The notes under the pieces were generated by a model. That model worked only from the letters and a program-made list of their open reading frames with translations, did not search any database and was not told where the DNA came from. From Mucisphaera calidilacus (GTDB lineage: Bacteria; Planctomycetota; Phycisphaerae; Phycisphaerales; Phycisphaeraceae), in the NCBI RefSeq assembly GCF_007748075.1, contig NZ_CP036280.1, positions 2,700,001 through 2,732,000 of the forward strand: a stretch of DNA of 32,000 nt, in the 5' to 3' direction. The translations under genes were made by a program, and so were the position numbers. The stretch's first letter is position 1. The number at the start of each line of letters is the position of its first letter. This document shows, one piece after another, positions 6,868 through 32,000 of the stretch.

Positions 6868-6916
6868 ATGCTCCCGGCGATCCCTGAGTTCATGTTTTTC
6901 CCCGATCACCCACCAA

Positions 6917-9340: not shown

Positions 9341-9375
9341 CCCACTAGCATAATCTCCCGGCGCAGGAGCACACC

Positions 9376-9822: not shown

Positions 9823-9843
9823 ACCACCGCCCACACCCCAATT

Positions 9844-9879
9844 AAAAAAGACCCCGCGCCGCATCAGCAGCACGGGGTC
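9844..9879 (-). terminator. Intrinsic terminator for the 5'-nucleotidase gene (between convergent genes)
   Basis: On the minus strand, the stem GACCCCG (9873-9879) pairs with CGGGGTC (9850-9856) and is followed by TTTTTT (complement of the A6 run at 9844-9849). The loop is long (16 nt), which lowers confidence. Confidence 0.5.
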
Positions 9880-9921
9880 ACTTCGCTTCTCGGGCTTCTC
9901 CCGGGCCCGTCAGTCAATCAC

Positions 9922-11718: not shown

Positions 11719-11790
11719 AGCAAACTCCTCCTGTATTAAGGGTCATTCAGTTGTCCGGCTTCCTGACCGGGTCGCGAATCATGCCCGTTC

Positions 11791-11888
11791 TGCGCTAATT
11801 TCCGGCGAGGAGAATGTTGAGATTGCGCAAGCTGAGGGGTCTGCGCGAGTTAGGCAATTTATTGCGCAATCTATTAGACACTAAGCGC
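11791..11888. promoter_or_regulatory. Phased array of TGCGC-core motifs including the perfect palindrome ATTGCGCAAT, in an AT-rich divergent intergenic region
   Basis: TGCGC cores lie at 11791, 11824, 11842 and 11863, with AGCGC at 11884. The last three are exactly 21 nt apart. ATTGCGCAA is at 11822-11830 and ATTGCGCAAT at 11861-11870. They sit in the 343-bp AT-rich gap between divergent genes. This is a candidate operator array; the binding protein is unknown. Confidence 0.35.
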
Positions 11889-12061
11889 ACACATGGCCCA
11901 ACTGATTGTTTGCCATAATTTACTCTTGAATCAGATTTTTCTGACTTATTAGCCAATATCTAATCATTACCCGTTGACCACGACCCCTCCATCAATCAAC
12001 ATTGAGATACTCTGCTCGCGCAGATTACCCACCTTCACAAACTCCCCGACGAGACAGAATC

Positions 12062-14176: not shown

Positions 14177-14255
14177 GGCAGGCTCACTCGGGAAAAGGGC
14201 TGGGCGTGCGGATCACCACACCCGGCGGGATCGCCCCGCCTGTCCGCACCATCCC

Positions 14256-14285
14256 ATTATATCAGGATGAACACGGCTCTCCCAA
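14256..14285 (-). promoter_or_regulatory. Sigma70-like promoter with extended -10 for the aminotransferase gene
   Basis: On the minus strand: TTGGGA (14280-14285), an 18-nt spacer, then TGATATAAT (TATAAT = 14256-14261 with an upstream TG). The site lies between the LOG stop (14293) and the aminotransferase start (14176). It is judged against the E. coli consensus; the applicability of that consensus to this phylum is assumed. Confidence 0.4.
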
Positions 14286-14292
14286 GAACCGA

Positions 14293-14862
14293 CTAACCCG
14301 CCACCTGACCCGCGATCGCACGCAACTCCTCCACCACCCCGTCCACCGTCTCCACCACCGTCAGGTTCGCCATCGCCTTGGGACGGGCAAACCGCGTCTC
14401 CAGCAGATGATCAAAAAACGACAGCAGCGGCGCGTAAAATCCATCCTGATTCAACAACAGCACCGGCTTGTCGTGATAACCCAGGTAACGCAGCACCAGG
14501 ATCTCCGACAACTCCTCCAGCGTCCCGATCCCCCCGGGCAGCGTCAGAAACACGTCCGACAGACGTTCCATCTCCGCCTTCCTCGGCCGCATGTGATCCG
14601 TCCAGATCAGCTCGTCCGCCTCCTCATACGCCACCTCCATCACACGCATCGACTCCGGAATCACCCCGATCACGTGCCCCCCACGGTCGTGCACACCCCG
14701 CGCCACCTCGCCCATCAGCCCCACGCCACCCCCGCCATAGATCAGCGTGTGACCCTCCTCCGCCAGACGCTGTCCCAGCAGCCGAGCCTGACCCAGAAAC
14801 GACCCATCCACTTCCTTCGACGAAGCGCAATACACGCAGACACTCAGGGATGACTTGCTCAT
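14293..14862 (-). CDS. LOG-family protein (TIGR00730-type; cytokinin riboside 5'-monophosphate phosphoribohydrolase-like)
   Basis: It carries VCVYCASS, YGGGGVGLMGEVA, GVIP and the diagnostic PGGIGTLEEL motif. The start is taken at ATG 14860-14862 (MSKSSLSV...). The track uses an upstream GTG at 14880. Confidence 0.85.
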   Translation of the reverse strand: MSKSSLSVCVYCASSKEVDGSFLGQARLLGQRLAEEGHTLIYGGGGVGLMGEVARGVHDRGGHVIGVIPESMRVMEVAYEEADELIWTDHMRPRKAEMERLSDVFLTLPGGIGTLEELSEILVLRYLGYHDKPVLLLNQDGFYAPLLSFFDHLLETRFARPKAMANLTVVETVDGVVEELRAIAGQVAG

Positions 14863-14972
14863 CGCGTCACCATACGACACGCAGAATCCGATGCAACCAC
14901 ACCGATTCTCAACACACGGCCCCCCTGCCCGCCCCCGATTTCGCTAAAGTCAGAATCAGGAGTGCAGCAGCC

Positions 14973-16844
14973 TTGTCGTCCACCACAACCCAACTCGCCG
15001 GGACCTCCAACCTCCGGCTCATCCTCCGCCTACTCGGCCTCGCCTGGCGCTACAAGACCGGCTCACTCTGCGTCGTCGGACTCCAGGTCCTGCTCCTCTC
15101 ACTCACCCTCAGCGGCCTCGGCTTCGTCGGACTCGGGCTCGACGTCCTCGGACACGACATAGGCGTCCTCGACCGCGCACCCGCCTGGCCCTTCGGATGG
15201 GAGCCCAGCGAAGACTGGACCACCCTCAGCCTCGCCCTCCTCCTCGCCGGTGCCGTCCTCGCCATCGCGCTCGTCCGATTCGTCCTCGAACACATCGCCA
15301 CCGTCCAGAAATCCATGCTCGTCCAGCGGATCATCGTCGACCTCCGATCCGAGGTCTACGACAAGGTCCAGCGGCTCTCCTTCCGGTTCTTCAGCGACAA
15401 CACCTCAGGGTCCATCATCAACCGCGTCACCGGCGACGTCCAGGCCGTCCGACGCTTCATCGATGGCGTCGTCATCGAGCTGCTCCTGATGGCCCTCACC
15501 CTCGTCTTCTTCCTCGTCTACATGCTCCAGATCCACGCCCTCCTCACCCTCGCCTGCCTCGCCACCACGCCCGCACTCTGGATCCTCACCGGTCTGTTCT
15601 CCAAACGTGTCAAGCCCGCCTACCGCACCAACCGCGAACTCTTCGACCACTCCATCGCCGTCCTCTCCGAGAACATCCAGGGCGTCCACGTCGTCAAAGG
15701 ATTCTGGACCCAGGACCAGGAAATCGAGAAGTACAAGGCCTCCAACACAAAAGTCCTCGACCAGAAAGAATGGATCTTCAAACAGGTCTGCCTCTTCGTC
15801 CCCCTCATCAGCTTCGTCCCCAACCTCAACCTCGTCGTCCTCCTCGGCTTCGGAGGGTACCTCTACGCCTCCGGCGAACTCGCCTTCGGAACCGGACTCA
15901 TCGTCTTCTCACGACTCCTCGAACAATTCTCCGCGCAGGTCGGCAACATCGCCCAGGTCGCCAACGCCATGCAGCAAAGCCTCACCGGAGCCCAACGCGT
16001 CTTCGAGGTCATCGACGAACCCGTCGAGATCAACGAGCCCGCCAACGCCCTGTCCCTCCAACGACCCCAGGGACGCGTCGTCTTCGAGAACGTCGGATTC
16101 GCCTACAACCCCGACACGCCCGACGTCCTCAACGACATCAGCCTCACCGCCGAACCCGGCAAGGCCATCGCCGTCGTCGGAGCCACCGGCGCCGGCAAGT
16201 CCACCCTCCTCAGCCTCATACCACGCTTCTACGACCCCACCCGCGGACGCGTCACCCTCGACGGTCACGACCTCCGCCAACTCGACCTCGACGACCTCCG
16301 GCGATCCATCGGCGTCGTCTTCCAGGAAAGCTTCCTCTTCAGCACCACCATCGCCGAGAACATCGCCTTCGGACACCCCGAGGCCACCCAGCAGCAGATC
16401 ACCCGCGCCGCCGAGATCGCCCAGGCACACCACTTCATCAACCAACTCGAAGACGGCTACAACATGATCCTCGCCGAGGGGGGCGGCAACCTCTCCGGCG
16501 GACAACGACAACGACTCGCCATCGCACGCGCCCTCCTCCTCGACCCCGCCATCCTCATCCTCGACGACCCCACCTCCGCCATCGACCCCGAAACCGAACA
16601 CGAAATCCTCGACGCCATGCACCACGCCATGGACGGACGCACCACCTTCATCGTCGCCCACCGGCTCAGCACCCTCAAACGTGCCGACCTCGTCGTCGTC
16701 CTCGAACGAGGCACCATCGTCCAGTGCGGCACCCACGAACAACTCATGGCCGAAGACGGGCACTACTACGAGGCCGCCAACCTCCAGCTCGTCGACGACG
16801 AGTCTAGACACCTCCTCGCCCTCCACGAGGAGAACACGCCATGA
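14973..16844 (+). CDS. ABC exporter, fused permease/ATPase subunit A of a heterodimer (degenerate catalytic site)
   Basis: Six-helix type I exporter TMD plus NBD. Walker A is GATGAGKST, the signature is LSGGQRQRLAIARAL, Walker B is ILILDDPTS (Asp where the catalytic Glu is expected) and the H-loop is VAHRLS. There is no in-frame ATG near the true N-terminus. I propose TTG 14973 (..SSTTTQLAGTSNLRLILRLLGLAWRYK) with AGGAG 10 nt upstream. The track ORF begins at 14850. Confidence 0.85.
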   Translation: MSSTTTQLAGTSNLRLILRLLGLAWRYKTGSLCVVGLQVLLLSLTLSGLGFVGLGLDVLGHDIGVLDRAPAWPFGWEPSEDWTTLSLALLLAGAVLAIALVRFVLEHIATVQKSMLVQRIIVDLRSEVYDKVQRLSFRFFSDNTSGSIINRVTGDVQAVRRFIDGVVIELLLMALTLVFFLVYMLQIHALLTLACLATTPALWILTGLFSKRVKPAYRTNRELFDHSIAVLSENIQGVHVVKGFWTQDQEIEKYKASNTKVLDQKEWIFKQVCLFVPLISFVPNLNLVVLLGFGGYLYASGELAFGTGLIVFSRLLEQFSAQVGNIAQVANAMQQSLTGAQRVFEVIDEPVEINEPANALSLQRPQGRVVFENVGFAYNPDTPDVLNDISLTAEPGKAIAVVGATGAGKSTLLSLIPRFYDPTRGRVTLDGHDLRQLDLDDLRRSIGVVFQESFLFSTTIAENIAFGHPEATQQQITRAAEIAQAHHFINQLEDGYNMILAEGGGNLSGGQRQRLAIARALLLDPAILILDDPTSAIDPETEHEILDAMHHAMDGRTTFIVAHRLSTLKRADLVVVLERGTIVQCGTHEQLMAEDGHYYEAANLQLVDDESRHLLALHEENTP

Positions 16845-18685
16845 GCGCCAGCCGACTCGACATCGAAACCGCCGACCGCGCCATCACACGACGCACCAGC
16901 CGCGAGCAGGAAGCCAAACACCGACCCCTCGACCTCGGCCTCATCCGACGACTCTGGACCTACACCGAGCCCTACGCCACGCTCCGCAACACCCTCATCG
17001 TCGTCGTCCTCACCCGCGCCCTCACCCTCCCCCTCGTCGCCTGGCTCCTCTCATCCATCCTCCTCGGACCCGTCCAGGCCAAGGACGTCCAGGGCATCAT
17101 CTGGGGCGCCGTCGAATTCGCCGCGCTCGCCGCTTTCACCGCCGTCGTCTTCCGATACCGAATGATGCTCTCGCTGCGCCTCGGCGAACGCGTCCTCCAC
17201 GACCTCCGCAACGAGATCTTCGTCCACCTCCAGAAGCTGCCCATGCGCTTCTACGACACCACCAAACTCGGACGCATCATCTCTCGCATGACCTCCGACG
17301 CCGAGTCCATGCGCCAAGGCGTCCAGGACGTCCTCTTCGTCACCCTCGTCCAGCTCGGACACATGTTCGTCGCCGCCGCCATCATGGCCTGGATCGACCT
17401 CGGACTCTTCCTCGCACTCGCTGTCATGGCGCCCATCCTCTGGTTCGTCGTCCAGTTCTTCCGCAGCCGGCTCACCAACGTCTACCGGCAGATCCAGGAA
17501 TCCTTCAGCCGCGTCACCGCCACCCTCGCCGAGTCCGTCTCAGGCGTCCGCGTCACCCAGAGCTTCGTCCGGCAGGACGTCAACGCCGAACTCTTCGCAC
17601 AACTCGTCGAAGACCACTCACGACACCACCACCGCGAAGCGCAGCTCCGAGGCGTCTTCCTCCCGCTCCTCGAACTCAACAACCAGTTCTTCATCGCACT
17701 CATCCTCGCGTTCGGCGCCCTCCAGATCCTCCGCGGAACCTTCCTCGCACCCGGATCACCCGAGGTCGCCTACGACGCCGTCGTCTACTTCTTCTTCCTC
17801 ACACCCCTCTTCTTCGGACCCGTCATCGCACTCGGACGCCAGTACAACATCGCCCTCGCCGCCATGGCCGGCGCCGAACGCGTCTTCAACCTCCTCGACA
17901 CCGAACCCCAGCAACTCGACGCCCCCAACGCCCGCGACATCGACCACCTCTCCGGCTCCGTCCAATTCGACGACGCCTGCTTCGAGTACGAGCCCGGACG
18001 CCCCGTCCTCCACAACATCAACTTCACCGTCGAACCCGGACAGATGATCGCGCTCGTCGGCGAAACCGGCTCCGGCAAGTCCACCATCATCAAACTCATC
18101 TCCAAGTTCTACCTCCCCACCTCCGGACAGATCCTCCTCGACGGCATCCCCACACACGACATCACCTCCGCCTCGCTCGCGCAACACCTCGGCATCGTCC
18201 TCCAGAACAACTTCCTCTTCACCGGCACCGTCATGGACAACATCCGCGTCGCGCGGCACGACGCCACCGACGAACAGGTCATCGACGCCGTCCGAAGACT
18301 CGACTGCCTCGACCTCCTCGAAGCACTCCCCCTCGGACTCCGAGCCGACGTCGGCGAACGAGGCGGAAACCTCTCCCTCGGACAACGACAGCTCGTCTGC
18401 TTCGCCCGTGCCATGCTCGCCGACCCCGCCATCCTCATCCTCGACGAGGCCACCTCCAGCGTCGACACCATCACCGAAGCACGCATCCAGCGAAGCCTCG
18501 CACGACTCCTCGCCGGACGAACCAGCTTCGTCGTCGCTCACCGACTCAGCACCATCCGGCACGCCGACCGCGTCATCGTCCTCCGCGACGGAAACCTCGC
18601 CGAGGCCGGCACCCACGCCCAACTCCTCACCCGAGGCGGCATCTACGCCGGTCTCTACCGGCAGTTCGTCAAATCCGGCATCTGA
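16841..18685 (+). CDS. ABC exporter, fused permease/ATPase subunit B of a heterodimer (canonical site)
   Basis: 614 aa. Walker A is GETGSGKST, the signature is LSLGQRQLVCFARAM, Walker B is ILILDEATS (canonical Glu) and the H-loop is VAHRLS. An ATGA overlap with subunit A lies at 16841-16844. Confidence 0.9.
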   Translation: MSASRLDIETADRAITRRTSREQEAKHRPLDLGLIRRLWTYTEPYATLRNTLIVVVLTRALTLPLVAWLLSSILLGPVQAKDVQGIIWGAVEFAALAAFTAVVFRYRMMLSLRLGERVLHDLRNEIFVHLQKLPMRFYDTTKLGRIISRMTSDAESMRQGVQDVLFVTLVQLGHMFVAAAIMAWIDLGLFLALAVMAPILWFVVQFFRSRLTNVYRQIQESFSRVTATLAESVSGVRVTQSFVRQDVNAELFAQLVEDHSRHHHREAQLRGVFLPLLELNNQFFIALILAFGALQILRGTFLAPGSPEVAYDAVVYFFFLTPLFFGPVIALGRQYNIALAAMAGAERVFNLLDTEPQQLDAPNARDIDHLSGSVQFDDACFEYEPGRPVLHNINFTVEPGQMIALVGETGSGKSTIIKLISKFYLPTSGQILLDGIPTHDITSASLAQHLGIVLQNNFLFTGTVMDNIRVARHDATDEQVIDAVRRLDCLDLLEALPLGLRADVGERGGNLSLGQRQLVCFARAMLADPAILILDEATSSVDTITEARIQRSLARLLAGRTSFVVAHRLSTIRHADRVIVLRDGNLAEAGTHAQLLTRGGIYAGLYRQFVKSGI

Positions 18686-18708
18686 CCCCGCGACGTACAA
18701 TCCACCCC

Positions 18709-19545
18709 ATGCCTGAACCCGACAACCAGCGTTACACCATCCGACACCTCCGACACTGGGCACGCGAAGGACAAACCTTCCCCATGCTCACCTGCTACAG
18801 CGCCCCCATGGCACAGTGGCTCTGGCGAGGCGGCATACGCACCCTGCTCGTCGGCGACACCGCCGCACAAACCGTCCTCGGGCACGACTCCACACTCCCC
18901 GCAAACATGCCCTTCATGCTCGAGATCACCCGCGCCGTCCGACGCGGCGCACCCAACGTCTGCCTCATGGCCGACATGCCCTTCGGCTCCTACCAGTGCG
19001 GCGACGACCTCGCGATCACCAACGCCGCCGCCTTCCTCAAGCAAGGCGACGCCGACCTCGTCAAACTCGAAGTCGACGACTCCTGCCCGCCACTCGTCGA
19101 ACGCATGACCCGCGCCGGCATCCCCGTCGTCGCACACATCGGTTCCAGACCCCAGACCTACCGCAGCTACGGCACGCCCATCGTCGCCGGGCGAACCGAA
19201 CGCGTCGCCAGAATCCTCCGCGACACCGCCACCGCCATGATCCAGGCCGGCGCCGTCGCCCTGCTCATCGAGGCCGTCCCCGACTCCGTCACCCGCGACA
19301 TCGTCGAAATCGCCGTCCAGCCCGACTCCGGACGACCCGTACCCGTCATCGGATGCGGCGCCGGACCCGGATGCCACGGCTACGTCGTCGTCATCAACGA
19401 CCTGCTCGGACTCAGCGATCAACAACCCTCCTTCGCAACACCCCTCGCCGACATCGGACAACAGATCCAGCACGCCGCCGGCAAGTGGCACGACCTCGTC
19501 ACCTCCGATCAGTACGTCAAAGAGGGCGGGCCCTACGGCGAATAA
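18709..19545 (+). CDS. panB: 3-methyl-2-oxobutanoate hydroxymethyltransferase (ketopantoate hydroxymethyltransferase)
   Basis: This gene is hidden in the C-terminal part of the phantom ORF 16681..19545. ATG 18709 gives 278 aa: MPEPDNQRYTIRHLRHWAREGQTFPMLTCYSAPMAQ...LLVGDTAAQTVLGHDSTLPANM...MADMPFGSYQ...VKLE...GIPVVAHIGSRPQ...IGCGAGPGCHGYVVVINDLLG. This is the PanB pattern. Confidence 0.85.
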   Translation: MPEPDNQRYTIRHLRHWAREGQTFPMLTCYSAPMAQWLWRGGIRTLLVGDTAAQTVLGHDSTLPANMPFMLEITRAVRRGAPNVCLMADMPFGSYQCGDDLAITNAAAFLKQGDADLVKLEVDDSCPPLVERMTRAGIPVVAHIGSRPQTYRSYGTPIVAGRTERVARILRDTATAMIQAGAVALLIEAVPDSVTRDIVEIAVQPDSGRPVPVIGCGAGPGCHGYVVVINDLLGLSDQQPSFATPLADIGQQIQHAAGKWHDLVTSDQYVKEGGPYGE

Positions 19546-19611
19546 ACCGAACCGCCCCCCGACGCCATGCGTATGATCTCCCCTGATCGCCTCACCCCGG
19601 AGACAAACACC

Positions 19612-21138
<1,527 letters not shown>

Positions 21139-21197
21139 CACCGACCCGCCAGGCGAACAACACTCAACCGCAGACCCGATCGGCTAAACTGACCGCC

Positions 21198-22235
21198 ATG
21201 ATCCGACCCGCCGACGAACAACCCGCACCCCTGCTTTCGGTCCGCGACCTCAAAACCCACTTCCCCGTCAAACGCGGCCTCCTCCGCAGGACCGTCGGAC
21301 ACGTCCGCGCCGTCGATGGCGTCTCCTTCGACCTCGGCCATGGCGAAACCCTCGGGCTCGTCGGCGAATCCGGCTGCGGCAAGTCCACCGTCGGACGATC
21401 CATCCTCCGACTCATCCCCGCCACCTCAGGACAGGTCCTCTACCAGGGCAACAACGTCTTCGACGCCTCCTCATCCACCATGCTCGCACTCCGCCGCGAG
21501 ATGCAGATCATCTTTCAGGACCCCGTCGGATCCCTCAACCCACGCATGCGCGTCGAATCCATCATCGGCGAACCCATCAAGGTCCACGGCCTCGCCCGAG
21601 GATCCGAACTCGACGACCACGTCGCAGACCTCCTCAAACACGTCGGACTCACCGCCGACCACGGACGACGATACCCCCACGAGTTCTCAGGCGGACAACG
21701 CCAACGCATCGGCATCGCACGCGCCCTCGCACTCAAACCCAAACTCATCATCTGCGACGAACCCGTCTCCGCACTCGACGTCTCCATCCAGGCACAGATC
21801 CTCAACCTCCTCAACGACCTCCAGCAGGAGTTCGGCCTCTCCTACCTCTTCATCGCACACAACCTCGCCGTCGTCGAACACTTCGCCGACCGCGTCGCCG
21901 TCATGTACCTCGGCCGAATCGTCGAGATCGCCGACCGCGACACCCTCTACCGAAACCCCATCCACCCCTACACCAAAGCACTCCTCTCCGCAGCACCCGT
22001 CCCCGACCCCTCAAGACCCCGCAACCGCATCATGCTCGAAGGCGACGTCCCCTCGCCCATCGTCATGATCGGCGACGACGAACAACGCAACCGCACCGGC
22101 GCAGCACACATGCGGACCGAAAACGGCGTCACCTTCCTCGACCGCGAAGCACTCCTCGACCGACCACCCCTCGAACCCGTCCCCAACGAACCCGGACACT
22201 ACGTCTCACTCCCCCAAGGCGTGACGGTCGACTGA
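21198..22235 (+). CDS. Oligopeptide/dipeptide-type ABC transporter ATP-binding protein (OppF/DppF-like), orphan
   Basis: This gene is hidden in the C-terminal part of the phantom ORF 19887..22235. ATG 21198 gives 345 aa. Walker A is GESGCGKST, the signature is [15 protein letters not shown] and Walker B is [12 protein letters not shown]. The Opp C-terminal block [16 protein letters not shown] is present. No permease, OppD or binding-protein gene lies nearby. Confidence 0.88.
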
Positions 22236-22267
22236 GCGGCAGCATACCCGCCTGAATCGCAACGCTA

Positions 22268-22616
22268 CGCCCGAACGCCGCCGCCAACTCAACGATCCAA
22301 CGCGTCAGCGGCCCCTCGTCGTCACACCTCCGCGGCGCGTAACGCTACGTGCTCCCATGGCTGATTCAAGACCTTGCACGCCCGACGCTCCGACACCGCA
22401 TAGCGATCACGCAGGTGCGTCACCGCTTCACGCGCCTGACGCGGGCTTAGTATTTGTGCTGTGCAGCGCTAAAGCGCCCCGCAGCCACCTCCGCCTCTCG
22501 AAGCTTGTTGACGATCTCCTTCGCTGAATGACGCTTGCGTCCCATGCCTGATCCTCCTTGATCCATGTCTCAGAACTAAGTCTAAGAAACGGATCCGATT
22601 GAGGGGGGGCAGGTCA
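22268..22616 (-). mobile_element. Decayed IS3-family insertion sequence remnant (left end, orfA start, internally deleted, orfB N-terminal fragment)
   Basis: The minus strand reads TGACCTGCCCCCCCTCAATCGG... (a TG-initiated terminus), then AAGGAGGA and ATG at 22545. The product MGRKRHSAKEIVNKLREAEV... (IS3 OrfA-like start) stops after 32 aa (22447). Other frames then give ..AVTHLRDRYAVSERRACKVLNQP.. and ..DDEGPLTRWIVELAAAFGR, which are IS3 OrfB N-terminal blocks. These are broken by a frameshift and an in-frame TAG, and truncated near 22268. Confidence 0.7.
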
Positions 22617-23033
22617 GGCAAGGCCATCACTGGTGAGCTGAACGCGGCCAACTACACGGTCTGCAACGTCGTCCATGAACATACGAGCGGCCAGCCCCGA
22701 ACGATCCGCGACGAGGTAGCTAATCACGAGCTTGGTATCGGAGTCGATAGCCACCCAGACCCAGGCATCGCCATGCCCCTTGCCACCCTTGGTTGCCTTG
22801 GTCCGCTCTTTACAGCCCACAAAGCTCCAAAGCTCATCCACCTGAATCGAGCTGGGTTCTATGTCGCGGACGTAGAGGTCGTGATATTGAGCCGCCAGCG
22901 TCCCCGCGTCGGCTAGGAGCCGCAGCACGGTGACCTTTGAAGCGCCTGTCATCCGAGCTGTAGCACTGACCGAGTTCCCCTCACAGAGAGCGGTGAGGAT
23001 CATGGCTCGTTTTTCAGTGCTTAGCTTTCGCAT
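22614..23033 (-). pseudogene. 5'-half of an IS1-family-like (single-ORF type) transposase gene, truncated by the IS3 insertion
   Basis: MRKLSTEKRAMILTALCEGNSVSATARMTGASKVTVLRLL (HTH) is followed by ...VDELWSFVGCKE...AWVWVAIDSDTKLVISYLVADRS...VQLTSDGLA and then a stop. Homologues as I recall them continue for about 100 or more further residues. The stop TGA (22614-22616) is the first three bases of the IS3 terminus. I prefer the start at ATG 23031-23033 over the track start at 23060. Confidence 0.65.
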
Positions 23034-23133
23034 CGGACGATAACTCGCGTATAATGTCAACGTCGGACGAGGCCGCTAAACCTCGCCCGAGCAAGGATTA
23101 AGTGTCGAGAACCCCTCGATCGGGACGCCTAGG

Positions 23134-23162
23134 CCCCTCGCTGCAACGAGGGGTTTTATTTT
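23134..23162 (+). terminator. Orphan rho-independent terminator hairpin on the plus strand
   Basis: The stem CCCCTCG (23134-23140) pairs with CGAGGGG (23147-23153) across the loop CTGCAA, and is followed by TTTTATTTT (23154-23162). No plus-strand CDS lies upstream of it. Confidence 0.6.
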
Positions 23163-23395
23163 GCGCTTCTTGGGGACCAACGGCTAGCGTTCTACCGCTG
23201 GCCCCTGTGGCCCTCCTAGCCATATTCACCTCCTTCCGTGGGGTGCTCTCTCTATTCATGTGTAGAAGAGTAACACCTTAAATGCGATAAGTCAACTTAG
23301 CAACGCGGAATTTTGCTAAAAATATAGGCTTGTCGCGCGAAGTGTGTTGCCATGTGCCACGCGAGACGATAAGCTTTTCCAAAAGGAGACTCCCT

Positions 23396-24391
23396 ATGGC
23401 AGAGCAGAATGATTTAGACAAGCGGGTTGGTGGTGGTGTACGAGGCCGCCGCGGTCCGAATTTCCCCTACATCGACCTGCCTACAGCAATTCAGCGTGTG
23501 CAGCAGGTGTACGACAAAGAGGATCGTAACGAAGCGCCTGTGAACTCGGTCGCCTCGCACTGGGGCTACAAAGTTACGAGTAGCTCAACAGATAAGGTCA
23601 TTGGGGCGTTGAAATCGTATGGCCTGATTGAGACAACGGGTAGCGGTGATGATCGGATGATTAAGCTGAGTGAGCAAGCGTTGGACATCCTTGAGGATGA
23701 GCGGCCCGACTCGAAAGAGCGAGCACAGGCACTGAAATCTGCCGCACTCGGACCTGCCATCCACCAAGATATTCGGGTTAAGTACGGTAAGAAGCTCGCT
23801 TCCGACGAAACGCTGCGCACTTTTTTAATACGCGAAAAAGGCTACAACCGTAAAAAAGTCGATGGAATTATTTCAAATTATCGCGCGTCAATTGAGCACG
23901 CCGGTCTTGACTCAGCAGAGAACGAAAGCGATAATCTTGATGATGAGACACAAGACCTCTCGCCGATTTCTGTTGGCACCATGGTCCAGTGGGTGTCGCA
24001 AGGCTCGACGCAATTCGATAGCCCACGACAAGTCATACGCGTCGACGATTTCGATGGTGAGCAGTTTGTAGTCGTAATGCAACCGAACGGGGTGGAAGGT
24101 GCTTTTCCCATGTCGCAAGCAGAAGTTGCAGAGGTAACCCCTCCTAAGGCAGATCCTGTCGCGCCACTACCGCTTTTAAAGCCCGGCGGTGCAGCTCAAG
24201 AGCCGCCCGCAACACAGAATACGGGTGATTTTAAAACCGAGACGATTGCCATAGGCGACTCGCAGGCAACTGTTACCTGGCCTAAACGCATTTCTAAGGA
24301 CGAGTTCGAAGACTTGGATTACTGGCTGAAGGGAGTGCTGCGAAAAGCCATGCGCGATGCTTCTCAAGCCGGGGAAGATCCCGACTCATAA
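23396..24391 (+). CDS. Hypothetical modular protein (331 aa), family not recognised
   Basis: The start is set at ATG 23396 (MAEQNDLDK...) with AAAAGGAGAC 5-6 nt upstream. The track start at 23330 is a TTG. GC is roughly 50-58% against about 65-70% in the flanks. The sequence looks protein-like: two helix-rich modules, a beta-rich segment, a Pro-rich linker and a short conserved-looking C-terminal module. Confidence 0.7.
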   Translation: MAEQNDLDKRVGGGVRGRRGPNFPYIDLPTAIQRVQQVYDKEDRNEAPVNSVASHWGYKVTSSSTDKVIGALKSYGLIETTGSGDDRMIKLSEQALDILEDERPDSKERAQALKSAALGPAIHQDIRVKYGKKLASDETLRTFLIREKGYNRKKVDGIISNYRASIEHAGLDSAENESDNLDDETQDLSPISVGTMVQWVSQGSTQFDSPRQVIRVDDFDGEQFVVVMQPNGVEGAFPMSQAEVAEVTPPKADPVAPLPLLKPGGAAQEPPATQNTGDFKTETIAIGDSQATVTWPKRISKDEFEDLDYWLKGVLRKAMRDASQAGEDPDS

Positions 24392-24558
24392 CCCGCCTCG
24401 AAAGCAGCTCGCAGTAGCTCCATCCCGCGCCGATCCACACCCTTGATGCCCTTCGACCAAGCCTCCTCAAGCTCGGCAGGGAGGCTTTCGTCTTGGCCAG
24501 TGGCCTTGCCGACTAGCTCGGCAGCTGCTTGGTTGGGGTTGTTGCTGGGGTCGTTCAT
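24364..24558 (-). CDS. Small hypothetical protein (64 aa), convergent with and overlapping the 331-aa gene
   Basis: MNDPSNNPNQAAAELVGKATGQDESLPAELEEAWSKGIKGVDRRGMELLRAAFEAGYESGSSPA is charged, helical and protein-like, unlike the antisense ORF 24443..24643. There is no obvious SD. TACAAT ends 6 nt before the ATG, so the mRNA may be leaderless. Its 3' end overlaps the 331-aa CDS by 28 nt. Confidence 0.4.
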   Translation of the reverse strand: MNDPSNNPNQAAAELVGKATGQDESLPAELEEAWSKGIKGVDRRGMELLRAAFEAGYESGSSPA

Positions 24559-24639
24559 GCACTTATTGTACGTCAGGGCCGCTCAGACCCCGAAAATTAA
24601 GTGCGGTCAAAGTGAACCACTACCCGCCCAACACCCGAA

Positions 24640-24667
24640 TTGACCCATTCTCATTTCGCGGTACACT
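24640..24667 (+). promoter_or_regulatory. Sigma70-like promoter of the rpsP operon
   Basis: TTGACC (24640-24645), a 16-nt spacer, then TACACT (24662-24667). It lies about 30 nt upstream of AAGGAG and the GTG start of rpsP. Confidence 0.5.
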
Positions 24668-24698
24668 ATGCGGCTAGACTTTCCCCAAGGAGACGACC

Positions 24699-24986
24699 GT
24701 GGTTCGACTTCGCCTTAAGCGCTTCGGCAGACGGCACCATCCGTTCTACCGCCTCAACGCAATGGATATCCGCACCCGCCGCGACGGTCGTGAGATCGAG
24801 CAACTCGGGTACTACGACCCCTGCAATAAAAACGAAGACCAACAATTTCACGTCAAGGAAGACCGCGTCCGATACTGGTTGAGCGTCGGCGCCCAGCCCA
24901 GCGAAACGGTCGCCAACCTGCTCAAAAAGGCCGGCATCGAGCCGACCCCAGGTGCCGAGGCACCCGCTCCCGCCGAGCAGGCCTGA
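24699..24986 (+). CDS. rpsP: 30S ribosomal protein S16
   Basis: MVRLRLKRFGRRHHPFYRLNAMDIRTRRDGREIEQLGYYDP...RVRYWLSVGAQPSETV is canonical S16. It has a GTG start with AAGGAG upstream. Confidence 0.95.
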   Translation: MVRLRLKRFGRRHHPFYRLNAMDIRTRRDGREIEQLGYYDPCNKNEDQQFHVKEDRVRYWLSVGAQPSETVANLLKKAGIEPTPGAEAPAPAEQA

Positions 24987-25031
24987 TCCCACGGCCGCAC
25001 CAGCGGCCCACCAACCCAGATCGCCCCCCTC

Positions 25032-25065
25032 AAGCCCCGGCCGTACGCGGGGCTTGTTTGTTTCT
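25032..25065 (+). terminator. Hairpin plus T-rich tract between rpsP and trmD (attenuator or partial terminator)
   Basis: The stem AAGCCCCG (25032-25039) pairs with CGGGGCTT (25048-25055) across an 8-nt loop, followed by GTTTGTTTCT. Confidence 0.5.
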
Positions 25066-25103
25066 AAAATCAGCTCGCAAAAAACCTTACGCAGGCACGC
25101 GTC

Positions 25104-26357
25104 ATGACGCGACGCATCGACATCCTCACCCTCTTCCCCGACATGTTCCCGGGCATCCTCGGGTCGAGCATCCTCAAACGCGCCGCCGAAACCGTTACCA
25201 GCCCCGCCGACCCCGCCCTCACCCGCGATCCGGTCGTCAGCTACCACCTCACCAACATCCGCGACTACACCGACGACAAACACCAGAAAGTCGATCAGCC
25301 GCCCTTCGGCGGGGGACCCGGCATGGTCATCCAGTGCCAGCCCGTCTACGACGCCGTCCGCGCCGCCGAGAACGCCGACCCGCGACCCGCACGCCGCATC
25401 CTCATGACACCCCAGGGACGCCCCCTCACCCAGAAACTCGCCACCGAACTCGCCGCCGAACCTCGCCTCATCATCCTCGCCGGCCACTACGAGGGCATCG
25501 ACGAACGCGTCATCGAAGAACTCGCCCCCGTCGACGAGATCTCCATAGGCGACTACGTCCTCTCAGGCGGCGAACTGCCCGCACTCGTCCTCATCGACGC
25601 CATCGTCCGACTCATCCCCGGCGCCCTCGGCCACGAAGATTCCGCCGCCCAGGACAGCTTCACCGGCAGCCACGCCAGCCGACTCGAAGGCCCCGCCTAC
25701 ACCCGACCCCGCCTCTGGCACAACCGCGAAGTCCCCGACGTCCTGCTCTCAGGCGACCACGCCAGAATCGCCGAATGGCGCGATCAACAAGCCCTCGTGC
25801 GCACAAGAGAACGCCGACCCGACCTCCTTCTGCCAACCCCGAGCGATCAATTAACGACCAGTTCTCAGATAATTACGATCAGGCATTTTCGACGAAAAGA
25901 GGCCAAAAACGTCGAGATTTGGACCAAAACGATCCAAAACGGGCTGTTTTCACCTTTCTTTAACACAAAATGGACCGACTTCTACGTCGACCTATTTATC
26001 GCAGATACCCCAGATACACTTTTTGGGGTCGCCGGACTCGTCAGCCTCGCCCTCAGCGACGAGCCCAGCCTCCGCGGACTCCTAGGCATCACACCCCTGA
26101 TCCTCGCCCCCGAGGCCCCCCAGCAGCCCCTCAAAACCGCCCTCATCCGCGAACTCACCGCCGCCGCCGACCAGGCCGGCGCCGCCGCCCTGCTCATCCC
26201 CGACGACCAACAGCCCGACGGATTCGAGCCAGCCAGCCAGCACAACCTCAGCATCAAGTCCAGCAACCACCAGCAGCTATGGCTCAAACCCCTCCGACCC
26301 GCCAAACTCGCCACCCTCACCGGCACCATCGACTGGCCCACCGCCTCTGGCCCCTGA
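25104..26357 (+). CDS. trmD: tRNA (guanine37-N1)-methyltransferase TrmD with an in-frame C-terminal extension of about 165 aa
   Basis: The N-terminal 250 aa or so are canonical TrmD: IDILTLFPDMF, GGGPGMV, ILAGHYEGIDERV, EISIGDYVLSGGELPALVLIDAIVRLIPGALG and LLSGDHARIAEWRDQQAL..T..RRPDLL. The reading frame then stays open for about 165 more codons, to 26357. Confidence 0.9.
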   Translation: MTRRIDILTLFPDMFPGILGSSILKRAAETVTSPADPALTRDPVVSYHLTNIRDYTDDKHQKVDQPPFGGGPGMVIQCQPVYDAVRAAENADPRPARRILMTPQGRPLTQKLATELAAEPRLIILAGHYEGIDERVIEELAPVDEISIGDYVLSGGELPALVLIDAIVRLIPGALGHEDSAAQDSFTGSHASRLEGPAYTRPRLWHNREVPDVLLSGDHARIAEWRDQQALVRTRERRPDLLLPTPSDQLTTSSQIITIRHFRRKEAKNVEIWTKTIQNGLFSPFFNTKWTDFYVDLFIADTPDTLFGVAGLVSLALSDEPSLRGLLGITPLILAPEAPQQPLKTALIRELTAAADQAGAAALLIPDDQQPDGFEPASQHNLSIKSSNHQQLWLKPLRPAKLATLTGTIDWPTASGP

Positions 26358-26425
26358 TCCCCCGGTTGTCCCAGCAACACCAAAACGCTATATTACGTGG
26401 CTCGATACACAACGAGGAAAACCTC

Positions 26426-26851
26426 ATGAGCGACGCCATTCTCAAAGCCGTTCAGGCTCAGCAACTCAAATCCGACCTTCCGAAGCTTTCGGTGGGTGAC
26501 ACGGTGAACGTGCATGTGCGCATCATCGAGGGTTCGAAGGAGCGTGTTCAGGTGTTCACGGGTGTGATCCTGAAGATGCAGGGTGGCGGTCTGGAGCAGA
26601 CGATCACGGTTCGCCGGATCGTGGCCAACGAGGGTGTGGAGCGTACTTTCCCGGTGCACTCGCCGCGTGTGGCTCAGATCGAGGTGGTCCGTCACGGGCA
26701 CACGCGTCGGTCGCGTCTGTATTTCCTGCGTGAGCGTGTGGGCAAGTCGCGTCGTCTTCGTGACCGCCGTCGTGGTCTGAAGAACATCGCGGGTGTGATC
26801 CCCACGGGTGTGTCGAAGAAGAAGGCCAAGGCCGAGGCGGCTGAGGACTGA
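26426..26851 (+). CDS. rplS: 50S ribosomal protein L19
   Basis: ATG 26426 gives 141 aa: MSDAILKAVQAQQLKSDLPKLSVGDTVNVHVRIIEGSKERVQVFTGVIL...NEGVERTFPVHSPRV..IEVVRHG..RRSRLYFLRERVGK. This aligns with E. coli L19. The upstream part of track ORF 25970..26851 is phantom. Confidence 0.95.
   Translation: MSDAILKAVQAQQLKSDLPKLSVGDTVNVHVRIIEGSKERVQVFTGVILKMQGGGLEQTITVRRIVANEGVERTFPVHSPRVAQIEVVRHGHTRRSRLYFLRERVGKSRRLRDRRRGLKNIAGVIPTGVSKKKAKAEAAED
26450..26500. other. Abrupt polarity switch of G/C and T/A strand skew (origin-type polarity)
   Basis: Hand counts on the + strand: 26358-26425 G12/C23; 26426-26473 G9/C16; 26474-26530 G19/C14; 27241-27300 G27/C14. Third-codon positions of rplS change from C/A-ending to G/T-ending at about codon 17. 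Confidence 0.6.
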
Positions 26852-26881
26852 TTCACCGGAACGATTGACCGTCATGATCAG

Positions 26882-26916
26882 CGGCCGTCTCCGAGTGAGA
26901 CGGCCGTTTTCTTTTT
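26882..26916 (+). terminator. Intrinsic terminator of the rpsP-trmD-rplS operon
   Basis: A perfect 10-bp stem, CGGCCGTCTC (26882-26891) pairing with GAGACGGCCG (26897-26906), has the loop CGAGT and is followed by TTTTCTTTTT. Confidence 0.85.
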
Positions 26917-26967
26917 GCGCCCGTGGCGTGGTGAAGCGTGCGGGACCACTCTGCTAGGATTGGTGTT

Positions 26968-28582
<1,615 letters not shown>

Positions 28583-28590
<8 letters not shown>

Positions 28591-30355
28591 CGCGATGCCT
28601 GACACATCGACCGGGGCGAAGCGCTCCGACAACGGCGGCGGCCTGATGGGGCTGGTGTTCAGCCTGATCGCTGACGTCGTGGTGACGGTGGTGAAGCTGG
28701 TGATCCTGTCGGCGGGGGTGCTGGTGCTGATCGGTCTGATCGCGGGCGCGTTTTTGGCGGCGGGGACGCAGCTGGATCCGACCTGGGGCCCGTGGGTGCT
28801 GTGGGGCGGTCCGGTGGGTCTGCTGGTGGTTTACCTGGTGCTGACGATGCGTGGGGGTGTGTATCAGCACCTGATGGTGCGTCGTTATCTGCGTCGTCGT
28901 CTGCCGCCTTTGTTTGCGGCGCTGACGGTGATGCTGTGCACGGCGATGGTGATCGTGGTGATCAGCGTGATGGGGGGTTTTCTCGATCTGTTGAGTGAGT
29001 CGGCGCAGCGTCTGACGGGTGACGTGGTGATCGACGCGCGTTCGCAGGAGGGCTTCGCGGACTACGAGGCGATCATCGAACGTCTGGAGTCGTTGCCTGA
29101 GGTTGAGTCGGCGGTGCCGGTGATCGAGGCGTACGGGCTGGTGCGTTATCGGGGCCAGACGCTGACGGTGCAGGTTCAGGGCGTGGACCCGGAGCGTCTG
29201 AACCGGGTGCTGGATTTCGAGCGGACGCTTTACTGGTCGACGGAGGATTACCTGGCGGCGTTTGATGAGCAGGTAGCGCGGATCATCGAGATGCGTGGCG
29301 GGTTGTCGGAGCAGGGTGAGCGGTTGGCGAAGATGCAGCGTCATCAGCTGGGGTCGCGTGACGTGACGGATGCTTCGATGGCGTTGACGCCTCCTGACGA
29401 CTGGCAGCCGGACGAGGCAACGCGTCTGCCTGGCATGATCATGGGTGTGGAGGTGAACCCGTTCAGCAGCCGTGACCCTCGGGGTCGGTACGAGTTTGAG
29501 TACCGGTCGCTGGAGGAGGAGGTGACGCTGACGGTGGTGCCGATCACGCGTTCGGGTGCGGTGCTGGACCCGGCGGTGCGTCGGATGGTGGTGGTGAACG
29601 AGTACAAGTCGGGTTTGTACGACGTGGACGCGAACCGGGTGTATGTGCCGTTCGCGATGCTGCAGGCGATGCTGCGGATGGACGCGTACGAGCGGTTTGA
29701 CGAGGCGACGGGCGAGCCTACGGGCGAGGTGGCGCCGGGTCGGACGCACCAGGTGCTGCTCAAGGCGGCGGAGGGCGTGTCGCCTGAGGATCTGCGGACG
29801 GTGGTTTATGACGAGACGGTGAAGGTGCAGGCGGAGCTGGGTCAGATGCAGCCGCTGTACATCATGACGTGGCAGCAGCGTCACGCTCGGATTCTGAATG
29901 CGGTGCAGAACGAGAAGGGGATGGTGACGTTTCTGTTCGTGATCATCTCGATCGTGGCGGTGGTGATGGTGGCGGTGACGTTTTACATGACGGTGCTGGC
30001 GAACATCCGTGACATCGGCGTGATCCGTGCGGTGGGCGGTTCGCGGACGGGTGTGCTGAATATTTTCCTGGGTTATGGGCTGGCGATCGGTGTGGTGGGT
30101 GGCGGTCTGGGGTTGACGCTTGGCGGGTCGATCGTGATCTATCTCAACGAGATCCAGGACGTGATTCACTACTTCAGCGGTTGGCGGATGTGGAATCCGC
30201 AGACGTATTTCTTTGACCGGATCCCGAACCAGGTGAACCCGATGGAGGCGTTGGCGATCGTGCTGGGGGCGGTGCTTTCGAGCGTGGTGGGAGCGGCGTT
30301 GCCGGCGATCATGGCGTCGCGGCTGGACCCGGTGGAGGCGTTGCGTCATGAGTAG
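28583..30355 (+). CDS. LolC/LolE-like ABC transporter permease (MacB-type periplasmic domain plus FtsX domain)
   Basis: TM1 is followed by a long periplasmic domain. The FtsX-type C-terminal four-helix region ends ...AALPAIMASRLDPVEALRHE, which is family-typical. The start is uncertain: ATG 28583 overlaps the lysS stop by 8 nt, ATG 28595 is an alternative, and the track gives 28523. Confidence 0.8.
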
Positions 30356-31034
30356 GCTGCGTGCCGAGGCGTTGACGCGTGTGTTCCGTAGCGGCCCGAA
30401 GCGGCTGGAGGTTCTGCGTGGGGTGTCGCTGACGATCGAGTCGGGGGAGTGGGTAGCGATCCTGGGGCGGTCGGGTTCGGGCAAGAGCACGCTTTTGCAC
30501 CTGCTGGGGGGGCTGGATCGTCCGAACGGCGGGTCGGTTCATTTTGACGAGCAGGACATCCGGCGGATCGGGATCAACCGGTATCGGAACCAGCACGTGG
30601 GGTTCGTGTTTCAGGCGTACCACCTGCTGGCGGAGCTGAGTGCGATCGAGAACGTGCTGCTGGCGGCGATGATCGGCCCGACGCCTGCGGGCTGGGGTCC
30701 GCGTCGTGGGGAAGCGCGTGCGGAGGCGGTTCGTCTGCTGGAGCTGATGGGTCTCGGGGACCGGATCGATCATCGTGTGGAGCGTCTGTCGGGTGGCGAG
30801 CGTCAGCGTGTGGCGATTGCGCGGGCGCTTATTAATCGTCCGGCGTTGCTGTTGGCCGATGAACCTACTGGCAACCTCGATGCCCAGACCAGCGGCGAGA
30901 TTCTGGATCTTCTGCGCAAGCTTCACGGAGAGGGTCAGACCATCGTCCTGGTGACGCACGACCTCGGGGTGGCGGAGGCAGCGGATCGGCGTTTGACGCT
31001 CGAAGCCGGTAATCTGGTAGGCAATCATGAATGA
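30348..31034 (+). CDS. lolD: Lipoprotein-releasing-system-type ABC ATP-binding protein
   Basis: 228 aa. Walker A is GRSGSGKST, the signature is LSGGERQRVAIARAL and Walker B is LLLADEPTGNLD. It overlaps the permease gene by 8 nt. The MacB/LolD family assignment is firm; the specific LolD call rests on the partner and context. Confidence 0.8.
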   Translation: MSRLRAEALTRVFRSGPKRLEVLRGVSLTIESGEWVAILGRSGSGKSTLLHLLGGLDRPNGGSVHFDEQDIRRIGINRYRNQHVGFVFQAYHLLAELSAIENVLLAAMIGPTPAGWGPRRGEARAEAVRLLELMGLGDRIDHRVERLSGGERQRVAIARALINRPALLLADEPTGNLDAQTSGEILDLLRKLHGEGQTIVLVTHDLGVAEAADRRLTLEAGNLVGNHE

Positions 31035-32000
31035 TCATCGCGATGACAAGCACGACGGCGATCTGACCCCCCAGCACCCACAAGACGCGACACCGGAGGA
31101 AGCGGCGATCCCTGCGGATCAGGCGGCTGATCGGCCGGAGTCGGGGCACCCGTTCGGGGAGCCGGATGCGCGGGCGTCGGAGGAGCGGCCTGAGCCGGCG
31201 TCGGTTCAGCGTGATCTGCCACAGGGGTATGCGTTGGTCCAGCCGGATACCGAGGCGCGGGTGGCGGAGCCTGAGGGGCGATTGGCGGAGGGAGAAGACG
31301 AGGCGGATCAGCCTGAGATGGTGTCGCCTGCGACGCCCCCTGCGCGTTCGTACGCGGTGGATGCGCTGCGTGGTCTGGCGATCCTGGGGATGTGTTTGTC
31401 GGGGATTATTGCGGGTGGTTTGTGGAACGGCATGTATCACGGGAACTTCCCGCGTTGGCTGCCCGGCGCTTTCGTGCAGCCTGCGGAGGCGGAGCCTGAG
31501 ACGGATCCTGCGCTGAGTGATGTGGAGGCGTTGGATGCGGCGCTGGACACACCGGCGTCGGCGGCGGGGGGCGATGGTTGGCAGGCGGTCGAGTCGGTGG
31601 TGTTCCGAGATGACTGGCCCTCGTTCACGTGGGTGGACTGGGTGTTCCCGATGTTTTTGTTCGCGATGGGCTTGGCGATCCCGCTGGCCTATGCGGGTCG
31701 ACGGTCGCGTGGTGGTTCATGGTGGGCGTACCCGTTCCATTCGGTGTGGCGGTTCGTGATTCTGGTGGGATTTGCGTTGTATGCGCGTCACGTGACGGCG
31801 CATTTCATTGACAGTTCGCCTGACGCGGCGACGTGGTGCGTGGTGCTGATCGGATTCCTGGTGCCGTTCGCGTTGTTCGTGCGGTTGCCGAGTGGCACGC
31901 GTGCGGGCGGGCGATTGGCTCTGCGTCTGCTGGGGCTGACGGCGGCGGTGTCGCTGCTGGCCTTCATCAATCTGCGTGAGGGTCATGAATTCACGTGGAA
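31027..32000 (+). CDS. Membrane protein of the heparan-alpha-glucosaminide N-acetyltransferase-like (DUF1624/DUF5009-like) type; 3' end runs off the window
   Basis: Absent from the ORF track because there is no stop in the window. ATG 31027 is followed by an acidic/Pro-rich N-terminal region of about 100 aa. Next comes RSYAVDALRGLAILGMCLSGII..., the family-typical R..S.D.LRG motif opening the first TM helix. Further hydrophobic helices follow (WVDWVFPMFLFAMGLAIPLA..). It overlaps the lolD stop by 8 nt. Confidence 0.65.
   Translation, partial: MNDHRDDKHDGDLTPQHPQDATPEEAAIPADQAADRPESGHPFGEPDARASEERPEPASVQRDLPQGYALVQPDTEARVAEPEGRLAEGEDEADQPEMVSPATPPARSYAVDALRGLAILGMCLSGIIAGGLWNGMYHGNFPRWLPGAFVQPAEAEPETDPALSDVEALDAALDTPASAAGGDGWQAVESVVFRDDWPSFTWVDWVFPMFLFAMGLAIPLAYAGRRSRGGSWWAYPFHSVWRFVILVGFALYARHVTAHFIDSSPDAATWCVVLIGFLVPFALFVRLPSGTRAGGRLALRLLGLTAAVSLLAFINLREGHEFTW

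Follow-up and report, generated by a model that had tools for sequence, protein, structure and literature searches.

Why does strand composition reverse abruptly inside an intact ribosomal protein gene, and does the reversal mark a place from which replication forks diverge? The question is raised by rplS, which encodes 50S ribosomal protein L19, in a 32,000-nt stretch of the Mucisphaera calidilacus chromosome (hereafter, the window; positions refer to it unless another locus is named). Strain Pan265 of this species belongs to the class Phycisphaerae of the phylum Planctomycetota, and its genome (CP036280) is 3.49 Mb in size and has no plasmids (PMC8882080). The genome is called closed in this work because its single 3,486,541-bp contig matches the full reported genome size; the word itself does not occur in PMC8882080. 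Protein accessions QDU72313...QDU72411 fix only the relative gene order in CP036280, without an anchor to gene 1 or dnaA.

The flip in strand composition inside rplS is real, very strong and independent of gene orientation. The regime change is in situ and has the polarity of a replication origin, and a switch of the same polarity lies near rplS in four other genomes. We infer a replication start at this site, which would be other than a canonical oriC with DnaA boxes, and lean, with little more than even confidence, towards reading the switch as a fork-divergence point and thus as a non-canonical origin.

The strand-composition switch inside rplS

In 1-kb windows, the skew between G and C (GC skew) ranges from -0.23 to -0.36 across most of positions 1-26000 and from +0.14 to +0.31 across 26500-32000. 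AT skew reverses together with GC skew. The cumulative curves reach their minima at 26481 (G-C) and 26470 (T-A), each being the minimum within the 32-kb window. When G sites are compared with C sites, the maximum-likelihood change point falls at 26482, with support within 2 log-likelihood units (lnL) from 26473 to 26495. A four-letter change-point model (Table 1) gains 79 lnL over a model without change. For comparison, the best gain in 20 control stretches of 3.9 kb from the left arm, the part of the window left of the switch, was at most 24 lnL, with peaks at low-GC islands. The transition is also narrow. A logistic fit has its best width at 1 nt, and widths of at least 40 nt and at least 80 nt lose at least 2.2 and 4.5 lnL, respectively.

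The orientation of genes does not determine the pattern. In the left arm, + strand genes have GC skews at third codon positions (GC3 skews) of -0.66 to -0.79 and the corresponding TA3 skews of -0.5 to -0.86, while minus-strand genes, read on the strand that encodes them, have GC3 skews of +0.41 to +0.60, which likewise corresponds to a C-rich + strand. Right-arm genes have GC3 skews of +0.26 to +0.51 and TA3 skews of +0.7 to +0.84. The change point and the GC3 skews of genes on both strands bear out the original prediction, which had described an abrupt flip regardless of gene orientation. Close to the boundary, C makes up about 85-90% of G+C at the third positions of trmD, the gene upstream of rplS (e.g., C47/G7 per 60 codons), and the spacer between the two genes is clearly in the left regime.

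Within rplS itself, the third letters of codons 2-17 are mostly C or A and both Lys codons are AAA. From codon 18 to codon 141, the third letters are G or T and all Lys codons are AAG. A shift in codon endings at this place had been noticed before and is now delimited. The 5' ends of genes (first ~15 codons) often show atypical codon usage, and the first 17 rplS codons of the sister genome are likewise less G-rich than the remainder. Because of this atypical usage, a conservative boundary interval is about 26420-26495. GC content is about 0.50-0.53 over 26360-26480 compared with 0.64 regionally, which represents a modest dip. A hairpin-capable sequence, CCGAA-GCT-TTCGG (26480-26492; 5-bp stem, containing AAGCTT), lies exactly at the best change point and codes for LPKLS; its position there is probably due to chance.

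The earlier view that rplS is intact, and that the flip arose in place without a rearrangement scar, also holds, given the Pfam match to L19 and the conserved gene order in relatives. As for strength, a skew effect is "typically around 2.5%", and 0.046 is given as a worked example, according to the SkewDB paper (PMC8941118). The (G-C)/N values found here (0.14-0.195) are 6-8 times that typical value (PMC8941118). Such extreme replication-type asymmetry, with GC3 skews of up to 0.8 in the window and in loci L001, L082 and L085, characterises Mucisphaera-like genomes as a clade, may stem from their repair or polymerase repertoire and, in our view, merits as much attention as the switch.

Related genomes and the reading as diverging forks

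Opposite compositional regimes usually result from the direction of replication forks, and a change from minus to plus has the polarity of an origin; fork divergence is therefore proposed. In Planctomycetes, the leading strand is G+T-rich and gene-strand bias is lacking (survey; PMC4070872). Under this rule, the minus-to-plus change at rplS has the origin polarity that the original prediction assigned to it, and not the plus-to-minus polarity of a terminus. Because gene-strand bias is lacking in the phylum (PMC4070872), gene orientation offers no independent test of polarity, and it is uninformative in the window as well, where coding is ~50:50 on both strands. The G-rich strand carries rplS in the majority of other Phycisphaerae loci.

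Fork divergence at this site would mean that, over a long time, the + strand has served as the leading strand to the right of the switch, where it is G/T-rich, and the lagging strand to the left, where it is C/A-rich. Since the asymmetry is so strong (GC3 skew about 0.5-0.8), the boundary can be located with near single-base precision. Its place in M. calidilacus would be ~45-70 nt into rplS, ~65-95 nt past the point where rplS transcription is predicted to begin. Relatives show clear signs of homologous-recombination tracts in this block, and such tracts may set the base-level positions of the boundaries and may sharpen or shift an intragenic position by up to 1-2 kb. The site may be a cryptic or divergent oriC that overlaps the rplS promoter and the 5' region of the gene.

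Same-polarity switches in relatives all lie within 1.3-2.5 kb of the site in the window (Table 1). The closest case is an independent long-read assembly of a sister species, Mucisphaera sp. (L001), in which the minus-to-plus flip occurs in the same gene block. L001/L082, L085 and L086 share with the window the gene order DUF58-MoxR-...-rpsP-trmD-rplS-lysS-macB-ABC-DUF5009 across the switch. The sister locus has flanks of at least 23 kb (C-rich) and at least 11 kb (G-rich), compared with at least 26 kb and at least 5.5 kb in the window. On the sister contig, the skew keeps its expected sign at L084, 300 kb to the left, and at L082, another 23 kb along the C-rich side towards higher record coordinates. 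Synonymous sites have reached saturation between the window and L001 (amino-acid identities of 85% for LysS and 60% for TrmD). This saturation, combined with full-strength switches 1.3 kb apart, argues that the switch is neither a decaying relic nor a single ancient import. On such comparative grounds, the boundary between the two regimes must be actively maintained.

The transition in the sister genome is broad. Its best logistic width is ~320 nt, a step is disfavoured by 9 lnL, and the change is spread over about 1.4 kb. In trmD of L001 (8845-9565), third-position G:C counts per 60 codons run 18:37, 29:18, 25:30, 32:17, 39:14 and 48:3. Such counts would fit either a boundary that has moved left in the course of time or initiation spread across a zone. 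At third positions, the whole of rplS is C-rich in the closed chromosomes L002 and L003 and G/T-rich in L001, and the rplS of the window is chimeric. The relatives' boundaries lie 35-390 nt into + strand genes. Each of the four independent lineages has its boundary in the opening quarter of a + strand gene, shortly behind a spacer that carries a promoter (P about 0.004; a post hoc hand calculation to which we give little weight).

L002 and L003 are mosaic with respect to each other. Over L002 9885-14900, they share 98-99% identity in rplS and the first 140 nt of lysS and ~91% in the rest of lysS, followed by 55-79% in macB (also estimated at 60-75%) and 88-94% beyond it. The first drop in identity (98-99% over 9885-10783, ~91% from 10784) coincides with the skew boundary of the two chromosomes (10778-11006), which lose synteny 5 kb to the right of the switch. 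A scan of JGI metagenomes with a MacB alignment yielded five distant loci, none of them informative.

Conflicting samples, replication landmarks and rival explanations

Several observations weigh against an origin at rplS. Two relatives with identical gene order lack the expected pattern. In L085 (LysS 81% identical, gene order identical over 20 kb), the skew is uniform at -0.35 and the switch is absent, and all genes, rplS, lysS and macB among them, have a GC3 skew of about -0.7. In L086 (LysS 78%), a broad plus-to-minus gradient extends over the same block. The claim that the regime change is long-standing is accordingly sustained in part. It is supported by same-polarity switches in the sister and in three more distant genomes, and it is qualified by L085, which has no switch, and by the terminus-type gradient of L086. 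In addition, lineages differ in where the boundary lies, and the sister genome has a broad one, which is unexpected for a fixed oriC.

The L086 gradient is of terminus type in the very block that is of origin type in relatives. Over L086 1-20441, GC3 skew falls from +0.45 to ~0 (rpsP to ABC) and on to -0.5, with TA3 skew following more slowly (+0.7 to 0). This pattern would be the trace expected of a drifting or diffuse terminus, where forks meet.

Distant samples disagree with the local pattern as well. On the circular chromosome OY763327.1, samples 0.5 Mb to the left and right of the switch were taken via prepilin-like paralogues, with ENA contig ctg38572c assumed to share OY coordinates. 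The skew there is weak, amounting to +0.07 at 3.31-3.33 Mb and to -0.07 at 4.36-4.38 Mb, uniform over 20 kb and independent of gene strand, and these signs are opposite to those beside the switch at 3.864 Mb (-0.2 / +0.17). On the Mucisphaera sp. contig, the expected negative skew is present from 1.568 to 1.868 Mb, but at 2.980-2.989 Mb, 1.1 Mb to the right, the replicative component is about -0.3. Rearrangement may explain the signs of the distant samples. Below 1.568 Mb on the same contig, the skew is ~0 in a sugar-utilisation cluster, which is possibly an acquired island. At ~2.98 Mb (L083; 8147-8692, 12575-14157 and 20510-20996), a weak skew extends over at least 12 kb and turns from plus to minus beside genes for IS3-type transposases and a phage-type integrase; the region could be a terminus zone or a genomic island.

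The customary landmarks of an origin are also missing. The DnaA-box consensus used was TTATCCACA, from which this clade's own box may diverge. At no more than one mismatch, it matches once in the 32 kb (at 3570, 23 kb off) against 2.1 matches expected, and the scan reveals no cluster. Matches with up to two mismatches are not enriched within 1.5 kb of five switches. The DnaA-box-like CGATACACA at 26403-26411, which had been put forward earlier, overlaps the GGCTCGA leader motif, which is also found ahead of rplS in relatives whose switch lies elsewhere; coming after the predicted promoter, the candidate box belongs to the promoter and 5' untranslated region. No k-mer motif is common to four independent switch regions beyond the control level, in a comparison that excludes L003 because of its near identity to L002. 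No dnaA was found among the window genes (Pfam) or within 10 kb in relatives, and Pfam scans of the window genes contained no dnaN, parAB or other origin-proximal genes. A parS site at up to three mismatches is absent from the window, L001 and L082-L086, while seven 3-mismatch matches occur in other loci, including L002 and L003 (about 5 kb from the switch), L057 and L094. Finally, there is no free intergenic space around rplS. The spacers of 68 and 86 bp are filled by the promoter/leader and the terminator, which leaves no room for a separate oriC, and a non-coding region of at least ~200 bp with a marked AT-rich unwinding element is not present at the switch.

A tblastn search with E. coli DnaA produced a match in L060 only, a Planctomycetaceae contig (UBA11397). 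There, a 332-aa DnaA-like protein (6182-7180; 31% identical to residues 199-455 of E. coli DnaA) is encoded 5.5 kb downstream of rplS, the sole case of a DnaA-like gene near rplS among 94 loci. Terminus sites were searched in 12 sequences with dif queries of E. coli, B. subtilis and Caulobacter type. No dif site at up to nine mismatches was found in the window or in the loci of 10 relatives that carry the switch or were sampled for skew. The lone match in the scan, with nine mismatches, is in L087 (16354), a weak-skew genome. The only match to the core ATAA-N6-TTAT is at 9866 in L003, about 1 kb to the left of the boundary in that locus.

Like a DnaA-dependent oriC located by its cumulative GC-skew minimum, the switch shows a minus-to-plus GC flip with a concordant TA flip, G/T-rich strands that diverge, independence of orientation and a step-like form. 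It differs from such an oriC in that no DnaA-box cluster, dnaA, dnaN, parAB or parS is nearby, in that the boundary lies in the rplS coding sequence and not in a free intergenic region with a marked AT-rich element, and in that its position shifts by 1-3 kb between relatives and it is missing from two syntenic ones. Hendrickson and Lawrence reportedly described, in 2007, a dif-centred skew switch at the replication terminus. Such a switch is likewise sharp and locatable to a short interval, and its position can drift when no trap fixes it; however, the polarity here is opposite, a dif-like XerCD site is lacking, and L086 shows a broad plus-to-minus change in the same block. Local skew "anomalies" arise from chromosomal inversions or horizontally acquired islands (SkewDB, PMC8941118). 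They share with the switch an abrupt local change, and the window also holds two zero-skew islands of this kind, but here gene order and reading frame run through the boundary and the flanks keep full strength for many kb.

Origins primed by a transcript (R-loop) include ColE1 RNA II, E. coli oriK in constitutive stable DNA replication and the mitochondrial heavy-strand origin. The boundary in rplS resembles them in lying ~65-95 nt downstream of a predicted promoter, co-directional with transcription. The resemblance is positional, no conserved structure accompanies it, and the statistic behind it is post hoc. To our knowledge, no bacterial chromosome uses an R-loop origin in the wild type. 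Some cyanobacteria and archaea replicate independently of DnaA or from multiple origins. Possible parallels are more than one origin- or terminus-type switch per chromosome and the lack of DnaA boxes at the site. In contrast to the skews of those cyanobacteria, which are weak or irregular, the ones found here are among the strongest that we have seen reported, and multiplicity is only hinted at by three distant samples. We regard as quite doubtful, but worth stating, a start of chromosome replication in Mucisphaera and its Phycisphaeraceae relatives that lacks DnaA boxes, lies by a promoter in the rpsP-trmD-rplS-lysS cluster, may be transcript-primed, drifts, can be lost and in some genomes may exist beside a second origin on the opposite side, in which case the chromosome would be a natural multi-origin one.

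Other explanations have to account for the same facts. Forks could indeed diverge in the block, but from a second site of initiation, auxiliary or alternative, that lacks DnaA boxes and is not the only origin. The rpsP-trmD-rplS-lysS block would then perhaps lie in the global terminus half, with a replicated domain of ~10 kb to hundreds of kb depending on the lineage. Such an arrangement would suit OY763327.1, where the far flanks are of terminus type (+ left, - right) and the 10 kb on each side of the switch are of origin type and about three times stronger. It would also suit the ~6-kb near-zero plateau of L086, centred on rpsP-ABC, as the sum of a terminus step and a weak local origin-type domain, and the 6-kb rplS-lysS-macB-ABC segment of L087, which is raised from a background of -0.5 to about -0.1. 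The strong skew of the sister contig, which is bounded at -300 kb and reversed in sign by +1.1 Mb, and the missing features of a canonical oriC point in the same direction. We consider an auxiliary site unlikely, though worth keeping in view. The argument depends on two far-flank samples of one genome with assumed shared ENA/OY coordinates, the L002 and L003 genomes are rearranged so that the far samples may lie in inverted segments, and the uniformly strong skew of L085 does not fit. We also know of no wild-type bacterium with two origins on one chromosome. Similarly improbable, in our estimate, but equally worth keeping in view, is that the base-level position and sharpness of the switch reflect the endpoint of a homologous-recombination tract imported from an oppositely replicated relative. 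The identity step between L002 and L003 at their skew boundary, the mosaic block with its 60-75% identity in macB, the skewless patch in trmD (25824-26003) whose protein is unrelated to three relatives, and the contrast between a broad transition in the sister and a sharp one in the window are all consistent with an import, as is the location of boundaries in conserved housekeeping genes (trmD, rplS and lysS), where homology across lineages is best. An import leaves the long flanks unexplained, however, and a true regime change within the block would still be needed. Moreover, alleles of opposite skew differ at most synonymous sites and retain little homology, and the window TrmD is equally distant from all three relatives (57.9-60.4% identity).

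A replication terminus would produce the observed polarity if the skew rule were reversed and the leading strand were C/A-rich. The mobility of the boundary between lineages and its breadth in some of them would be expected of a fork-meeting point, and the far-flank signs of OY763327.1 and the L086 gradient provide a terminus-type context. Yet the local and far polarities of OY763327.1 are mutually opposite, and a reversed rule does not reconcile them. No convincing dif-like site lies near any switch, leading strands in Planctomycetes are G+T-rich (PMC4070872), most Phycisphaerae loci have rplS on the G-rich strand, and a step of a few bases is not expected where forks meet stochastically. A reversed terminus is thus very unlikely. 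Least credible, and close to negligible, is an artefact or rearrangement scar in the form of a misjoin, an inversion or a translocation breakpoint. The abruptness of the change does resemble a junction, but this junction would lie within a full-length, in-frame and conserved L19 gene, gene order and orientation across it are as in three relatives, the source is a closed isolate genome, and the independent assembly of the sister flips with the same polarity in the same block. Three particular candidates were rejected. A metagenome chimera is ruled out because the sequence comes from the closed isolate genome of M. calidilacus, to whose L19 in NCBI the rplS product is 100% identical. An inversion breakpoint, named with the original prediction as something that would refute it, is ruled out by the conserved gene order and the intact rplS reading frame, both continuous across the switch. 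Transcription-coupled asymmetry is ruled out because + strand genes that are C-rich in L085 have G-rich + strand orthologues in L001.

Features of the window and implications for the lineage

The features of the window and the boundaries in related genomes are listed in Table 1. The 32-kb window contains no tRNAs and no Rfam families. At the switch, Rfam gathering and E-value thresholds yield no RNA family, and a sub-threshold chance match falls on the terminator only.

Table 1. Coordinates of the switch, of the features around it and of same-polarity boundaries in related genomes (the latter in the coordinates of each locus).
Feature	Coordinates	Strand	Description
Change point (four-letter model)	26469..26494, best 26482	n/a	rplS codons 15-23
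Left arm	1..26468		+ strand C/A-rich irrespective of gene orientation; (G-C)/N -0.18 to -0.195; interrupted by two low-GC zero-skew islands
Right arm	26495..32000		+ strand G/T-rich; (G-C)/N +0.143; genes all on + strand
rpsP (S16)	24699..24986	+	Upstream member of rpsP-trmD-rplS cluster, C-rich side; orthologue is PF00886 in L001, L085 and L086
trmD	25104..26357	+	PF01746 on residues 45-239; ~170-aa clade-specific C-terminal extension (alignment with relatives)
trmD-rplS spacer, 68 bp	26358..26425	+	C/A-rich like left arm; promoter, leader and ribosome-binding site GAGGAA
rplS promoter, sigma-70 type, predicted	26366-26394	+	TTGTCC-17-TATATT; 1 promoter-like site vs 0.0 expected
Leader motif GGCTCGA	26399-26405	+	Conserved upstream of rplS in L001, L002 and L003
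rplS (50S ribosomal protein L19), intact, 141 aa	26426..26851	+	Pfam PF01245 full-length, E 7e-44; product QDU72411.1
Intrinsic terminator after rplS	26880..26918	+	12-bp stem, then T-run
lysS	26938..28590	+	First complete gene of G/T-rich regime; switch inside lysS in L002 and L003
Gene map, left part			DUF58 (-), MoxR (-), VWA/BatA (-), unknown (-), DAHP synthase (-), DeoC (-), hydrolase (-); Pfam scans and synteny
Gene map, next block			Deaminase (+), 5'-nucleotidase-like (-), prepilin-like (+), aminotransferase (-), LOG-like (-); Pfam and synteny
Gene map, next block			Two ABC exporters (+), panB (+), htrA (+), oligopeptide-type ABC ATPase (+), then low-GC island; Pfam and synteny
Gene map, right end			rpsP (+), trmD (+), rplS (+), lysS (+), macB-like (+), ABC ATPase (+), DUF5009 (+); Pfam and synteny
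Boundary in L001 (Mucisphaera sp., 3.25-Mb contig; LysS 85% identical)	8847-9056		In trmD, 1.3 kb left of the position in the window
Boundary in L002 (closed chromosome OY771506.1; LysS 59%)	10809-11006		In lysS
Boundary in L003 (closed chromosome OY763327.1; LysS 59%)	10778-10970		In lysS
Boundary in L065 (Phycisphaeraceae metagenome-assembled genome)	9628-9702		Start of gene 2 kb downstream of rplS

Some segments of the left arm depart from its regime. A low-GC (0.52-0.56), zero-skew island at 22236-24650, between the oligopeptide-type ABC ATPase gene and rpsP, contains a transposase-like fragment (22614-23060, minus strand) and a gene for a 331-aa hypothetical protein (23396-24391; QDU72408.1). 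Since the island is not at this position in L001, L085 and L086, it was probably inserted recently and has yet to take on the skew of its surroundings. The 5'-nucleotidase-like gene (9922-11718, minus strand) has a lower GC content and a GC3 skew of ~0 (0.04) amid a background of -0.6. Its neighbours, the deaminase and prepilin-like genes, are adjacent in L082 with no 5'-nucleotidase-like gene between them, and it was therefore probably acquired recently. Within trmD, a 180-bp patch (25824-26003) has low GC3 content and zero skew, and flanking TrmD sequence aligns well with that of relatives; judged by its composition and alignment, the patch looks like a small replacement or recombination tract.

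If forks do diverge inside rplS, the switch would provide a natural base-resolution map of leading-strand starts, at a site without textbook oriC features, in a phylum whose cell cycle is already unusual and in a strain that can be cultured (DSM 100697). If the whole-genome curve has one clean minimum here and dnaA lies tens of kb off, the site would be an ordinary origin whose signal happens to be unusually sharp. Syntenic relatives disagree, the block being of origin type, without a switch or of terminus type, which suggests that replication landmarks relocate frequently or that more than one initiation site exists. More generally, the strength of the skew makes this clade very well suited to tracing the direction of replication, recently acquired genes and tracts of recombination.

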